From Clostridia bacterium (GTDB taxonomy: Bacteria; Bacillota; Clostridia; Oscillospirales; CAG-272), in NCBI GenBank assembly GCA_017456005.1, contig JAFTLJ010000096.1, positions 1,597 to 65,596 of the forward strand: a stretch of DNA of 64,000 bases. Reading direction: 5' to 3'. The position numbers and the translations under genes are program-made. Every line of letters begins with the position of its first letter. The first letter of the stretch is position 1. Positions 996 to 62,465 of the stretch are shown here, piece by piece. The notes below the pieces were generated by a model that was not told the DNA's origin, did not search any database, and saw only the letters and a program-made list of their open reading frames with translations.

Positions 996-1180
996 ATCCT
1001 TCCCCCTTTTTTCTCTCGTTTTCTCCCTACAGTATACCCCGACGTTCCCCCAATGTCAAGACGGCAGAGGGGCAGAGAAGAAAAAAAGGTGAACCTCGCC
1101 TCTGCATTCTTAGCGGAGAAAACACGAACACCACCAAGGAAATCTCTTTGGTGGTGTTCTTTGTTGACGACGGCTAAGCA

Positions 1181-53368: not shown

Positions 53369-54217
53369 ATGCCTGAAAACAGAAATAACGTATGCGCAGG
53401 TGTAGACTTCGGACGCGACACGGTGTATATCGATACAAACAGAATTCTCGATTGCTGCCGCGATAAGGATTGCTTCGAGGACGTACCCGTTTACCTCGCC
53501 TCCCCCTGTGCTGAAGTTTTGCAGACTTGTGTAAATATCAGGACAAAAAGCGCCGAGATCATCGCCGCAAATATAGGGCTCGACGAAATTCCGTTCAGCC
53601 CCGGATTCTACCAAATAAATATAAGGATGTTCTTAAAAATAAAATTTGAAGTTTGCCTGGCAAACGGCAGGGCAGAGGAGGTTTGCGGGCTCTGCGTGCT
53701 CGACAAAAGCGTGATACTTTTTGGTGGCGAGGGCAACGTAAGCGTGTTCCGTTCCAAGGCGGAGGAGGGCTCCTTCTGTGCAGGTATACTTACGGGTAAG
53801 AAGCACACGAACCTGCCCACAGCCGTATTTGAGGTAGCGGCACCGATTATCCTCGGCACAAAGGTGGCAGATCTTATGCCCGGCATGCGTTGCGGCGTGT
53901 GCCCGTGCGACATTCCCGAATGCGTGGCGGATTGCTTCGACGGCTGTATGTCATACACTTCCAATATGCCGCGTATAATTACGGTTTCCATAGGGCTTTT
54001 CTCTGTTGTGCGTGTGGAGCGCCCGGGGCAGTACCTCGTTACGGGAACGGAATATGCCGTGCCGGAAAAGGTGTGCCCGCCCGATTGCCCGGAAAACCCC
54101 TGCGAAATGTTCCGCAGAATGAGCTTTCCCGTGAACGAATTTTACCCTCCCTCTGCCATAGGCTACCAGCCGAAGGTGCAGGCGCAGGGCGGCTGCGGAT
54201 GCGGCAAAGCAAAATGA
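53369..54217 (+). CDS. Cys/Pro-rich conserved hypothetical protein (possibly spore coat/exosporium)
   Basis: SD GGAGG; ILDCCRDKDC, many Cys, PCEMF..FPVNEFYPP, terminal GCGCG. Confidence 0.75.
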   Translation: MPENRNNVCAGVDFGRDTVYIDTNRILDCCRDKDCFEDVPVYLASPCAEVLQTCVNIRTKSAEIIAANIGLDEIPFSPGFYQINIRMFLKIKFEVCLANGRAEEVCGLCVLDKSVILFGGEGNVSVFRSKAEEGSFCAGILTGKKHTNLPTAVFEVAAPIILGTKVADLMPGMRCGVCPCDIPECVADCFDGCMSYTSNMPRIITVSIGLFSVVRVERPGQYLVTGTEYAVPEKVCPPDCPENPCEMFRRMSFPVNEFYPPSAIGYQPKVQAQGGCGCGKAK

Positions 54218-54334
54218 CATAAAAGAAAAAAACAGACTGTCGTCTCTGCTTTCTTAGCGGAGAAATAGGCTGCACAAAAAACATCGTCAGAGAACTTGTT
54301 TTCTCTGACGATTTGTGTTATAATGGAATGGGTG

Positions 54335-54874
54335 ATGAAGATGGATAACGAAAAAGAATTACCAAAACGAAAAGATATCCGTTTGAAAAACTTTGACTAT
54401 AGTTCTCCCGGTGCCTATTTTGTGACAATATGTACTGAAAACCGGAAAAATTACTTTTGGAGTGGTGAACTGAATCCGCAAATATTTGAATGGCACTCCG
54501 TAGGGGCGAACTGTGTTCGCCCGCAAAATCTCCCATTGTCCAACATTGGAAATGCCGTTCTAGAGGAATTGGAAAAATGGCATAAAACATATGAATCTGT
54601 GGCATTGTGTTCATACGTTATTATGCCGAATCATTTGCATATTATGATTTTCATCTCTGCCGATGAATACGGGCGACCGCAGGTCGCCCCTACGATAGAT
54701 AGGATGGTAAAGCAATTTAAGGGATCTGTTACCAAAAAGATTGGACATCCTATTTGGCAGAAATCTTTTATGGAACACGTAATCCGAAACAAGCATGATT
54801 TTGAAACCAGATCAAAATATATCTACGAAAACCCTCTTCGGTGGTACTATGACGAATTGTACGCGGAAGAATAG
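54335..54874 (+). CDS. REP-associated tyrosine transposase (RAYT, Y1 HUH family)
   Basis: RKDIRL..FDYSSPGAYFVTICT, YVIMPNHLH (HUH), WQKSFMEHVIR, YIYENPLRW. Confidence 0.9.
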   Translation: MKMDNEKELPKRKDIRLKNFDYSSPGAYFVTICTENRKNYFWSGELNPQIFEWHSVGANCVRPQNLPLSNIGNAVLEELEKWHKTYESVALCSYVIMPNHLHIMIFISADEYGRPQVAPTIDRMVKQFKGSVTKKIGHPIWQKSFMEHVIRNKHDFETRSKYIYENPLRWYYDELYAEE

Positions 54875-54932
54875 GGGCATGGGCTTTGCCCGATGCCTTT
54901 GTAAAACAAAGGCGAAACTGGCGCGATAAAAC

Positions 54933-55313
54933 ATGGAAGGAAAAAATATGAATATTCTGTATGATTTATATATTAGTTGCACTGAGGAAGAATGCGGCAA
55001 AAAATATTGGGCAGAGCATCTTATAGGTACTTTCAAAACTAAAGATAAAGCCACTACTACGATGAAAAAAGTAATGAGTGAAGGTAAACCGTTTTCAAAG
55101 CCCGATTGTGAGCCACGAATACAGGAGGTGGAATTAGTTGGAGAAATTTTAAATGTTGATTCTGTATATCGCTTTTTTGGATATAACAAAGATGGAGATA
55201 TAATTTGTAGCTCTTATTATGCAGAAAAAGCTACAGCAATCCAAGATTTCATAAGGGCAAAGAAAAACAATTATGGACGAGATTGGTCTTTGAACACCTA
55301 TAAATTAGGATAA
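54933..55313 (+). CDS. Hypothetical protein (AT-rich cargo)
   Basis: 126 aa ORF (start may be 54948), followed by hairpin CCCCCGACAGA..TCTGTCGGGGG. Confidence 0.6.
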   Translation: MEGKNMNILYDLYISCTEEECGKKYWAEHLIGTFKTKDKATTTMKKVMSEGKPFSKPDCEPRIQEVELVGEILNVDSVYRFFGYNKDGDIICSSYYAEKATAIQDFIRAKKNNYGRDWSLNTYKLG

Positions 55314-55408
55314 TTACCGTTTTTTTATACAAAAATCCCCCGACAGACTTTAGAAAAATCTGTCGGGGGGTATCTCTTTGTTTTTTGCGGATCAAATATT
55401 GCTTATCC

Positions 55409-55456
55409 GTAGGGGAGACCTGCGGTCTCCCGCGGGCGAACACAGTTCGCCCCTAC
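55409..55456. repeat. GTAG-type REP doublet (REPIN-like)
   Basis: GTAGGGGAGACCTGCGGTCTCCC-GC-GGGCGAACACAGTTCGCCCCTAC; sister REPs at 54500-54522 and 54671-54693. Confidence 0.88.
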
Positions 55457-55535
55457 CGTGTGTTTGTGAAAGATTTTGCGCTTTCTCCGCTAATTTTGCA
55501 CGCGCTCGTGCGACAGTCTGTTTTGCTATGTAAGC

Positions 55536-56024
55536 TTATTTTTCGGGAATGAATGCTCTGATAACAGCGAATACACCGTTGATTATGAGTATTACACCTG
55601 CAACGATAACAGTCCATTCGATAGCGGCGCCGCGGCTTGTGATAAGGAAGAAGGAAGCAACAAGACCGAGAGCAGGCTCGATAAGACCGAGAACAGTTGC
55701 GAGAATTTTGATCTTTCTGTTTTTAACAACTGCTACTATTGTTCTGATGATTTCGGCAAGGCTGTAAACGAGGATAACGATGCCGAGAACGAGGAGCGCG
55801 ATGTCGAGAAGCAACCAACCGATAAGAAGAACGGCTGCGCCGAGAAGAACTTTTACAATGCCGGATGCTATAGCGCCGCGAACGAGGTCGAGAATTGCGA
55901 GTACGATGAGGGCAACACCGAGAACGGAGATGCAAATGCCGATAACGTCAGCTTTTAGAATAACAAAGAGGATACCAAGTGCCAAGGTCATAGCAGCAGA
56001 GATGAGATGGGATGTGGTTTTCAT
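55536..56024 (-). CDS. DUF308/HdeD-like membrane protein
   Basis: SD AAGGAG; about six hydrophobic segments in repeated LG...L pattern. Confidence 0.7.
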   Translation of the reverse strand: MKTTSHLISAAMTLALGILFVILKADVIGICISVLGVALIVLAILDLVRGAIASGIVKVLLGAAVLLIGWLLLDIALLVLGIVILVYSLAEIIRTIVAVVKNRKIKILATVLGLIEPALGLVASFFLITSRGAAIEWTVIVAGVILIINGVFAVIRAFIPEK

Positions 56025-56311
56025 TGACAAACTCCTTAAAAAAATTGAATTTATACTTATTTAAAAGTATATGAATATATGGTTTCCGTTGCTGTTTAAC
56101 ATAATATCACAAAATATGTGTAAAGTCAACAAAAAAACAAAAAAATATTGTGCTGTACGACAATTTTTCGGTGTATCAAAATGCAAACATTTTGCATAAA
56201 AAGCATTGACAAACCCAAATCTATATGATATCATATTGATATCACAAGACAATGGTGTTTTATTATAAATATAGTAACTGTGCCGCTTCGCGGCAGAAGG
56301 AGTGTGCTTAT

Positions 56312-61895: not shown

Positions 61896-61965
61896 AAAAG
61901 AAAGGCTAAGAGGCCTTCCATAAAGCAGGGTATGACTTGCCGAAAAGCAAAAGGAGTACGAGCAA

Positions 61966-62324
61966 TTGGCGCGATACTCCGATAAGAGTATCACGCCAGT
62001 TCTATTCGCCTCTCGGCGAGTTCTATTGCTTTGCAGTGATATTCGGCTTACGCCGAGTGATATTCGCTTCGCGAGTTTTGGAGGCGAATAGAATATCACT
62101 GTGAGGCGTAACCGAACAATATCACTGCCCGCAAGGGCAATATCACTCTTTGCGAAAGCAAAGAATATCACTCATAGACAGCAGAAAAAGAGAGAGTCTT
62201 ACGGAATTTTGCTTCCGCATGACTCTCCCTTCTGTTTTATCGCGCCAGTTTCGCATTTGTTTTACAAATGCATCGGGCTGCGCCCATACCCCTATCTTAA
62301 TTTATCCGATAAGAACATCACACA
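61966..62324. repeat. Composite palindromic element with AGTGATATT/AATATCACT hairpin array
   Basis: Four AGT(G/T)(A/C)TATT units and four AATATCACT units, mostly separated by short hairpins; nested in an 18-bp IR (61948-61965 / 62327-62344). Confidence 0.75.
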
Positions 62325-62465
62325 TTTTGTTCGTACTCCTTTTGAGTCTTTTTATAACATAGGAAATTGCGCGCAAATCGTGCGCAATTGCTTGTTCAAA
62401 AAAAGTTTTCCTTATGCAAAAATGCCCGATTTTCGGGCATTTTATAGTTGCCGAAGGCAACTTTT

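Follow-up and report, generated by a model that had tools for sequence, protein, structure and literature searches.

Evidence for a family of mobile expression cassettes with inverted-repeat ends at terminator hairpins in gut Clostridia

The window, a stretch of 64,000 nucleotides from contig JAFTLJ010000096.1 of the Clostridia bacterium assembly GCA_017456005.1 (lineage CAG-272), was analyzed, and all positions are counted from its first letter. Two convergent genes, at 53369-54217 (+) and 55536-56030 (-), lie on either side of an insert, called copy A here. Copy A has inverted-repeat ends and contains a promoter palindrome, a gene for a RAYT transposase homologue, a conserved leader, a cargo open reading frame (ORF) and a terminator hairpin of its own. 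It is one of many small transposable expression cassettes that form a large family in gut Clostridia, and its insertion is recent. We give a probability of roughly 75% to the reading that the cassette is mobile, moves by its inverted-repeat ends, targets the tips of terminators and duplicates a short target. A terminator-targeting family of mobile gene cassettes had been proposed from the letters of the window alone (the original prediction), and the counts of ends and palindromes, the rebuilt hairpins and the empty alleles described below bear it out.

The borders of copy A were set with empty alleles, which were found in contigs of two public runs from two other studies; contigs of runs X4 and X6 had no coverage of the flanks. 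A 1459-nt contig of run X8 (study P5) joins 53900-54239 straight to 55506-55900 and skips 1266 bases, with four letters at the joint 54239|55506 that can be assigned to either side. An 8077-nt contig of run X2 (study P2) follows the window to 54231 and reaches 55506 after seven letters, which is the site of X8 minus one A of the A-run. Compared with the window, the flanks show 6 differing letters in 735 (X8) and 8 in 727 (X2), which is about 99% identity. The flanks are also adjacent in G005, a genome of the same genus as the genome that holds the window (G000). There, the syntenic site is a short palindromic hairpin like that of X8 and X2, and a gap-free alignment to the window was obtained only after removing 54244-55505 and one TCGT. 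Because the X8 and X2 contigs bridge 54239|55506, the insert is 54244-55505, 1262 bp in length, with a 4-bp direct repeat, TCGT, at 54240-54243 and 55506-55509. TCGT is single in the empty alleles and double around the insert. The original prediction had suggested looking for an empty hairpin allele in close strains, and this was found in X8 and X2 and also in G005; its proposed duplication of at most 1 bp was replaced by the 4 bp of the empty-site contigs.

The empty alleles also define the target. The ancestral terminator has a 13-bp stem, formed by 54229-54241 and 55512-55524, and a 4-nt loop. Its left half in the window (54229-54243) consists of the A-run and left arm (13 nt, 54229-54241) and the TCGT at 54240-54243, as read from X8, X2 and G005; its right half (55506-55524) consists of the TCGT at 55506-55509, two loop bases and the right arm with the T-run (13 nt, 55512-55524). 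The rebuilt hairpin has a dG of -12.6 and a z of -7.1. It had been proposed that deletion of 54242-55497 restores a perfect 18-bp stem. That holds on paper, because the right tip of the element (55498-55505) happens to pair with loop-side bases, but the real empty alleles of X8, X2 and G005 have the 13-bp stem. Copy A occupies the tip of a terminator made of A-run, stem and T-run, with the convergent genes on either side, and this site is empty in strains of about 99% identity and in a sister species.

With these borders, the perfect 12-bp inverted repeat TTAGCGGAGAAA noted in the original prediction occupies 54254-54265 and 55482-55493, which leaves 10 nt outside it on the left and 12 nt on the right. 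The offsets of 12 and 4 nt that were first given, and the asymmetry read from them, came from a misplaced right border. The left terminal inverted repeat (54244-54265, +) consists of the 10-nt tip CTCTGCTTTC and the core TTAGCGGAGAAA; the right one (55482-55505, +), with its border taken from the empty-site contigs, consists of the core TTTCTCCGCTAA (55482-55493) and the 12-nt tip TTTTGCACGCGC (55494-55505). The eight letters GCACGCGC (55498-55505) are therefore part of the element and not of the target. The ends of copy A are roughly symmetric, imperfect inverted repeats of about 22-24 bp. Since the tips are partly matched, with TGC at equal distance, imperfect terminal repeats are as good a reading as subterminal repeats.

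The 22-nt left-end motif was found twice in the window (1100-1121 and 54244-54265) and in none of 100 shuffles, and the 16-nt right-end motif occurs exactly at 2621-2636 and 55482-55497. The right tip is kept as GCA[CG][AG][CT] in 10 of 11 right ends. A conservation profile of left ends was made from 16 rows that passed the left-end filter, two of them chance matches in unrelated sequence. On both sides, conservation drops to background 10-13 nt beyond the core. Ends of the family have a perfectly conserved 12-bp core and more variable tips of 6-12 nt.

G000 (2.1 Mb, 101 contigs, 94.65% complete) holds at least 23-30 cassettes, including copy A. Twelve left ends of the type found in copy A (alpha) were counted, against none with a reversed-pattern control, and many of these adjoin contig ends. 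The genome also has 23 promoter palindromes, 30 leader matches and 35 ends of a second type (beta). Alpha ends have the core TTAGCGGAGAA and two right-tip variants, and beta ends have the core TTCTCATAAGGA. A left end with the beta core followed by tandem GTGATAT-spaced hairpins, which Rfam calls Gut-1, was termed gamma. The same cassette frame was found inside at least two unrelated end types. Its common plan runs from one end through a promoter palindrome, a structured stretch of 100-250 nt that ends in the leader, a ribosome-binding site, a variable ORF and a terminator of the pattern CCCCGACAGA..TCTGTCGGGG to the other end. Copy A has one extra gene, the RAYT homologue, between promoter and leader.

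Next, empty sites were rebuilt for 14 two-ended insertions in G000 by joining the left flank to the right flank minus 3 nt. A strong hairpin was obtained in 13 of the 14 (z < -2 against 200 shuffles, mostly -7 to -9), and every one of the 14 sites was framed by a left A-run and a right T-run. Each of these insertions has a hairpin of its own, 14 different ones in all. Further paired ends, which the original prediction had told us to look for, are therefore present in the genome, and cargo is unrelated between copies of the family. The triplets at the two junctions are identical in 10 of the 14 and differ by one base in the other four. Among the 11 beta/gamma pairs, eight have TTT at both junctions, and in the remaining three one junction has TTT and its partner CTT; the alpha triplets are TCG, TTC, ATT or TTT. 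Copy B (see below), an insertion on contig C35 and a cross-contig pair (C82-C10) stand outside this count, as their deviant right-end cores were absent from the list that was used. Judged by eye, a perfect palindrome is restored at C35, but no more than a weak 4-bp stem at copy B.

These junctions bear on two other ways in which such a unit could move. In one, a tyrosine or serine recombinase would integrate a circular cassette at a specific site; the abutted ends would provide the 12-bp arms plus a spacer, with the T-rich loop triplet, common to cassette and terminator, as the crossover core. The beta triplet is nearly constant (TTT), which is more like a shared core than a random duplication, and G000 has three tyrosine and six serine recombinases. 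A frame that swaps its cargo also recalls integron cassettes. The alpha junction triplets vary, however, and with corrected borders the spacer is about 13 nt (beta) to 22 nt (alpha) in length, compared with 2-8 bp for known core sites. The cassettes lie singly at scattered terminators and not in arrays, and the only recombinase gene linked to a cassette is an Xer-like one that merely shares a targeted terminator (contig C63). A joint of right end to left end, the circular junction for which a check had been proposed, was not among the contig joints listed for four runs, and contigs drop rare forms. We consider integration by such a recombinase improbable.

The other is the one that the original prediction had drawn on, an element like the IS1111 group of the IS110 family, with asymmetric subterminal repeats, stem-loop targets, no duplication and a DEDD recombinase encoded elsewhere. 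The perfect 12-bp repeat 10-12 nt inside both ends, the tips that vary more than the core, the hairpin-forming targets and the structured RNA of about 100-250 nt encoded after the promoter near the left end are all in keeping with it. Several observations speak against it. The ends are about symmetric, there is a 4-bp duplication, and the targets are many different terminators, alike only in shape and in their T-rich loop triplets, rather than a single guide-matched sequence. The leaders of alpha and beta cassettes are near-identical despite their differing ends, so the leader cannot encode end-specific guides. Finally, the DEDD family PF01548 scored above its cut-off in three of 11 cassette-bearing relatives, and nothing above the cut-off was found in G000 or in G004 and G005, which have 12 palindromes each. 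The analogy is not supported, and an IS1111-like mechanism is very improbable.

The interior of copy A follows the common plan. Inside the left end lie the palindrome and promoter (54283-54324, +). The palindrome (54283-54312) is kept in nearly all family members, and its hairpin was called on both strands; it is a bidirectional terminator and possibly an operator. The promoter was found by reading the sequence, with a -35-like TTGTTT at 54296-54301 in the palindrome loop, a 17-nt spacer and a TG-extended -10 element TATAAT at 54319-54324. It was not listed by a consensus scan because the -35 element matches at only three of six positions. The RAYT gene (54335-54874) comes next, followed by the leader (54872-54932, +), which starts at the RAYT stop codon and consists of a GGGC-TTT-GCCC hairpin, a GCCTTTGT-AAA-ACAAAGGC hairpin and then GAAACTGGCG. 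The variable slot is occupied by a cargo ORF of 121 amino acids (54948-55313, +; alternative start at 54933) that has no family match. The conserved cassette terminator (55337-55369, +) has the family pattern CCCCCGACAGA ... TCTGTCGGGGG. Beyond it, a REP-like double hairpin (55409-55456) is bracketed by GTAG and CTAC, and its stems match both hairpins within the RAYT gene. Hairpins inside both ends had been described before, and these are now located at 54283-54312 and 55337-55369, with the double hairpin in addition.

The leader, which is about 60 nt in length and almost invariant across genera, was found in 58 of 66 extracted copies. One position of its hairpin covaries, with C:G in 38, A:T in 11 and G:T in 3 copies (pairs counted by hand). 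No consensus fold was returned by RNAalifold for the alignment of leaders, in which a few chance matches were included. Rfam had no leader match at E<=0.1 in 13 loci, and none for the ends either except for Gut-1. The leader may act as a regulatory RNA, or it may be a DNA site at which cargo is swapped.

The second member in the window, copy B (1099-2644, +), has alpha ends and another internal left hairpin, and its borders were assigned by analogy with copy A. The same ends around unrelated cargo had been reported near 1098-2636, which agrees with this location. The cargo of copy B is an HTH_3 regulator of 351-353 amino acids (1477/1483-2538) whose C-terminal part is long and helical. Alpha ends also bound the relatives of copy B, and in all of these the interior differs from the common plan. 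A 3.3-kb beta-ended element in another metagenome-assembled genome (MAG; locus L111, 181-3517) encodes three paralogues of this HTH_3 protein. The HTH_3 cargo proteins could be regulators that bind the shared promoter palindrome. Among 15 cargo proteins that were searched, four pass Pfam cut-offs (DUF4279, DUF2695, DUF3795 and DUF3784), two have weak matches and nine have none. Elsewhere, the cargo includes helix-turn-helix (HTH)-TPR regulators and GNAT-like, DUF559-like and four-helix-bundle-like proteins, all labels read by eye from translations.

A third, degenerate cassette-like stretch lies at 61960-62460 (-) of the window. Here, the alpha right-tip word GTGTGATGTTC with TTATCGGA abuts the leader directly, and the short ORF after the leader continues into Gut-1-like hairpins. 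This junction of an end with the leader recurs in G000 at C8:16781 and C60:25154. Matches to the Rfam motif Gut-1 were found in the window at 61997-62068 (+) and at two other loci (L024, 911-1011, -; L016, 1006-1076), one with 51.3 bits (gathering threshold 50) and two weaker. They correspond to the tandem GTGATAT-spaced hairpins just inside the beta-type left end of gamma cassettes. The orphan motif Gut-1 is part of a mobile-element end, at least in these instances.

The family is not restricted to G000. The number of beta ends per genome ranged from 0 to 35 in 11 genomes of the genus, and the alpha left end was found in 14 of 61 genomes and 13 of 60 genera of the family. A scan of GTDB gave at least 122 stretches, mostly in MAGs of gut Clostridia and with some chance matches in unrelated phyla. 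Relatives of the RAYT cassette of copy A with about 80% identity are present in G002 and G008, at other loci. Of 136 loci examined from metagenome and viral scans, 11 had a leader or promoter-palindrome match. All 11 are metagenomic, and several come from soil or water and are perhaps due to chance; the 15-nt pattern of the metagenome scan was too loose. None of the 16 viral loci had such a match. In four public runs, the conserved blocks had a summed depth in the hundreds, and unique cargo had little or none.

The cassettes also affect the assembly. A cassette mark lies within 400 nt of 28 of the 202 contig ends of G000, and the largest group of mutually similar contig ends (27 members) is made of cassette blocks. 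The cassette family is thus a main cause of the fragmentation of this assembly.

The gene at 54335-54874 (+) had been missed by the original prediction. It encodes a 179-amino-acid homologue of the RAYT-family Y1 (HUH) transposases, with the HUH motif 'HLH' and the C-terminal tyrosine motif 'YIYENP'. It matches NCBIfam NF047646 (REP_Tyr_transpos) with an E value of 2.9e-17 and 62.9 bits, which does not reach the cut-off of 80, and PDB entry 4ER8 (E. coli TnpArep) with an E value of 5.9e-5, with HxH and YIYxNP aligned. A Pfam search at E<=0.01 gave no match for this ORF, and only the looser Pfam (Y1_Tnp, E 0.03), NCBIfam and PDB searches revealed it. Homologues occupy the equivalent slot in other genomes. 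The HUH and tyrosine motifs are kept in nine full-length aligned homologues; a tenth, on contig C20 of G000, is cut by an insertion sequence (IS) and has only the HUH motif.

Two REP-like hairpins lie within the gene, in frame and on either side of the segment that encodes the HUH motif. The first (54499-54523, +) is GTAG-tagged and stands before the motif, at a site that is kept in homologues with other stem sequences; the second (54670-54694, +) stands after the motif and ends in CTAC. In the nine full-length homologues (copy A and eight others that are 41-80% identical to it; loci L298-L306), seven have a hairpin at both sites, one has only the second, and one has only a GTAG hairpin in an N-terminal extension. 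The stem sequences differ between homologues while self-complementarity is retained, and within each of two homologues the two sites have one stem in common. In the truncated copy on C20, the first site is occupied by the other REP type. REPs inside genes are a known phenomenon (PMC3733652), and no mention of a conserved hairpin pair within RAYT genes was found in the available parts of that paper.

The presence of this gene raises the possibility that the RAYT is the transposase of the family. Copy A would then be an autonomous 'TIRtron', and the cassettes without RAYT would be its non-autonomous, cargo-carrying derivatives with REPIN-like pairs of ends. Single-stranded DNA would enter the loop of a folded terminator, and the apparent duplication would be the left target triplet plus a similar cleavage triplet at the right end of the element, as in IS200/IS605. 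The RAYT is the sole transposase-like gene found inside members, and no DDE partner was found. Its slot, in the order palindrome-RAYT-leader ahead of the cargo, is constant in copy A of G000 and in G002, G008, G018, G009, G017, G020 and G006. In copies without RAYT, a short hairpin stands exactly in place of the ORF, from 54326/9 to 54872/4; a fixed slot with such a replacement is what autonomous copies and their deleted versions would be expected to show. Targets in the form of hairpins suit an enzyme acting on single-stranded DNA, and an empty allele with a single TCGT fits precise HUH excision equally well. In a search of 41 genomes (G000 and 40 relatives), a RAYT-like gene was found in 10 of the 11 genomes with the promoter palindrome and in 9 of the 30 without it, a comparison that is confounded by physical linkage and kinship. 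The original prediction held that RAYTs act on REPs and not on inverted repeats, and this overlooked published RAYT-like genes between inverted repeats that form repeat families (TIRtrons/TIRYT; PMC3733652 and PMC6006769, as far as their available parts describe them).

Other findings make the RAYT a doubtful mover of the cassettes. Known Y1 enzymes (IS608/ISDra2) recognize hairpins and are not known to use inverted-repeat ends or to duplicate their targets. The right triplet equals the left triplet of the same copy in 10 of 14 copies, which fits a duplication better than an end carried along. The RAYT of copy A has GTAG-tagged REP hairpins of its own, in its gene and as doublets in cassettes, as a classical RAYT does, and therefore needs no second substrate. 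RAYTs are found within both unrelated end types, alpha and beta, and the left-end subtype TTAACGGAGAA carries RAYTs with about one third of their residues in common (contig C20 of G000 against G018, judged by eye in an alignment). Only a single intact RAYT was assembled in G000; the others are truncated or lie at contig ends. Altogether, movement by the RAYT is possible but rather unlikely.

We lean toward a DDE-type transposase that is supplied in trans and was not seen in the assemblies, which we hold tentatively, at somewhat less than even odds, and which is slightly likelier than the RAYT. Such a transposase would bind both inverted-repeat ends, pair them, and make cuts offset by 3-4 bp in the tip that an extruded or palindromic terminator exposes, with a preference for T-rich loop triplets. 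The cassettes would then be passengers comparable to mobile insertion cassettes (MICs) or MITEs (miniature inverted-repeat transposable elements), and the RAYT would serve the GTAG-tagged REP hairpins nested in them.

A number of results weigh against this picture. No DDE transposase was found enclosed by these ends among all core matches in G000, in the 14 complete pairs (626-3337 bp) among the GTDB matches listed, which come from incomplete MAGs, or among 55 ORFs of at least 220 amino acids inward of 31 unpaired ends, which were judged by eye from their first 70 residues without a scan. G000 has no DDE_Tnp_1 and only two rve genes, one IS481-like and one IS3-like, with ends unrelated to those of the cassettes, and clustering of its contig ends showed no unassembled multicopy IS. 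An rve gene was not found in three of the 11 cassette-bearing relatives, including G005 (12 palindromes, 85% complete). Variation is greater at the outermost tip bases than in the inner core, a feature uncommon among DDE ends, and a strict 3-bp duplication requires the alpha left border to float by 1-2 nt between copies. Also, exchange between strains, rather than recent transposition, could explain the filled and empty alleles.

Other candidates were considered in the same searches. No DEDD, tyrosine or serine recombinase was found inside the elements either (core matches of G000, listed GTDB pairs, inward ORFs by eye), so the copies enclosing a recombinase that the original prediction had proposed to look for did not turn up; a large serine recombinase lies near one unpaired end (locus L072). 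In the 41 genomes, rve genes were found in 8 of the 11 with the palindrome and in 14 of the 30 without it. Both rve genes of G000 were rejected as the parent IS. The IS3-like one lies in an AT-rich island, and its ends are unrelated. The IS481-like one lies in a broken RAYT cassette with two end types, where its flanks are unmatched and its ends unrelated. In that cassette (C20:716-2516, locus L159), the 425-amino-acid IS481-like transposase truncates the RAYT after the HUH motif. The left end of the cassette is alpha-like, the right end is beta, and the outer flanks are unpaired, which suggests IS-mediated rearrangement or misassembly.

A wider proposal joins the RAYT to an integron-like organization. 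In it, the cassettes would form a dispersed pool, and master copies such as 54244-55505 would encode a RAYT that moves inverted-repeat units into single-stranded terminator tips. We regard this as speculative and doubtful. If true, it would be the first RAYT/TIRYT system whose sequence reveals the mobile unit, its target, its junctions, its recent activity and its non-autonomous derivatives with cargo ('giant REPINs'). Through their common promoter palindrome and leader, all cassettes of the pool would answer to a single regulator, and the pair of GTAG hairpins around the HUH-coding segment would be a site for self-directed control or recombination.

So far, it has been mainly from copy patterns that RAYT-like enzymes and small bacterial repeats were inferred to be mobile. 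Here, exact borders, a structural target, filled and empty alleles, and a candidate enzyme in some copies turn this mobility into a question that can be tested at the bench. The cassettes also provide a route for the spread of small accessory genes, each with its own promoter, leader and terminator, and landing in intergenic terminator tips leaves coding sequences uninterrupted.

The cassettes were then compared with known systems; features of these systems that are given without a citation are general background. MICs, such as MIC231 of Bacillus cereus, and cargo MITEs are alike in having inverted-repeat ends, a short duplication, unrelated passengers and dispersed copies, most of them without a cognate transposase. 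The cassettes have terminal inverted repeats, a short target duplication and an insertion polymorphism between close strains, as expected of this class. They differ in that no parent IS with these ends was found (in G000, the listed GTDB pairs and the 31 unpaired ends), in their conserved palindrome-leader-terminator frame around one swappable ORF, in having at least two end types, and in their target, the tip of a terminator hairpin.

For the choice of target, the closest precedent is IS1397/ISKpn1 of the IS3 family; both enter hairpin loops outside genes and duplicate 3-4 bp. They are autonomous elements of the DDE type, have TG...CA ends and target a single REP family, whereas the cassettes have other ends and no DDE gene that we found, and enter ordinary terminators of many sequences. 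Elements of the IS1111 group are alike in having hairpin-like targets and, if the ends of the cassettes are read as subterminal, a conserved 12-bp repeat set in from the ends. The cassettes differ from them in their duplication, roughly symmetric ends, structure-defined targets and lack of any DEDD gene that we found, and three of the four defining features of the group fail (DEDD transposase, no duplication, one specific target sequence).

Integron cassettes are also a pool of small, mostly uncharacterized single ORFs in a swappable frame. Each cassette here has its own promoter and inverted-repeat ends and lies singly at a terminator, with no attC site noted, no integrase platform and no array. 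Assignment to integron cassettes was rejected because the copies are single and dispersed, and two of the three Phage_integrase genes lie away from cassettes while one, Xer-like, shares a targeted terminator. Correia elements of Neisseria are likewise small, have inverted repeats and no known transposase, and deliver promoters and terminators to sites between genes. They have no ORF and duplicate TA, in contrast to the full expression unit and the terminator-tip target of the cassettes.

Two relatives of the RAYTs were rejected as classes. IS200/IS605 elements do not fit, as inverted ends and a duplication are present and Pfam Y1_Tnp was matched with an E value of only 0.03. A classical REPtron does not fit either, since no abundant extragenic REP family was found; three REP words had 19, 11 and 16 matches in 2.1 Mb, many of them at cassette loci. 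The layout of copy A has GTAG hairpins inside the RAYT ORF and a doublet 535 nt downstream, with none upstream.

TIRtrons, or TIRYT, are Y1 genes of the RAYT-like kind that lie between terminal inverted repeats (Di Nocera et al. 2013, PMC3733652; Quentin et al. 2018, subclass 2.1, PMC6006769), as described in the parts of these papers that were available. They are alike in having a RAYT-like gene with HUH and tyrosine motifs between inverted repeats that also form a genomic repeat family, and, as far as can be judged from sequence, copy A fits this description on both of the features that can be read in this way. A RAYT flanked by inverted repeats was found with both ends in copy A, G002 and G008, with the left end in G018, and with beta-type ends in G006. 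There are also differences from the published accounts, within those parts. The published repeats mostly share GGGGWSAS, a motif not seen in the cassettes here, and TIRYT subclass 2.1 proteins have a C-terminal HTH that was not seen in the RAYT here. GTAG-tagged REPs coexist with inverted-repeat ends in the cassettes, and no target, duplication, empty site or cargo derivative is described for TIRtrons in the parts consulted of PMC3733652 and PMC6006769.

No published account of the cassette family was found; supplementary TIRYT lists, possibly with Clostridia examples, were outside the literature search. Compared with the known kinds, three features of the cassettes are new. These are a conserved expression frame common to cassettes with unrelated ends, a fixed RAYT slot within it, and the tip of an ordinary terminator as the target, as established by natural filled and empty alleles.

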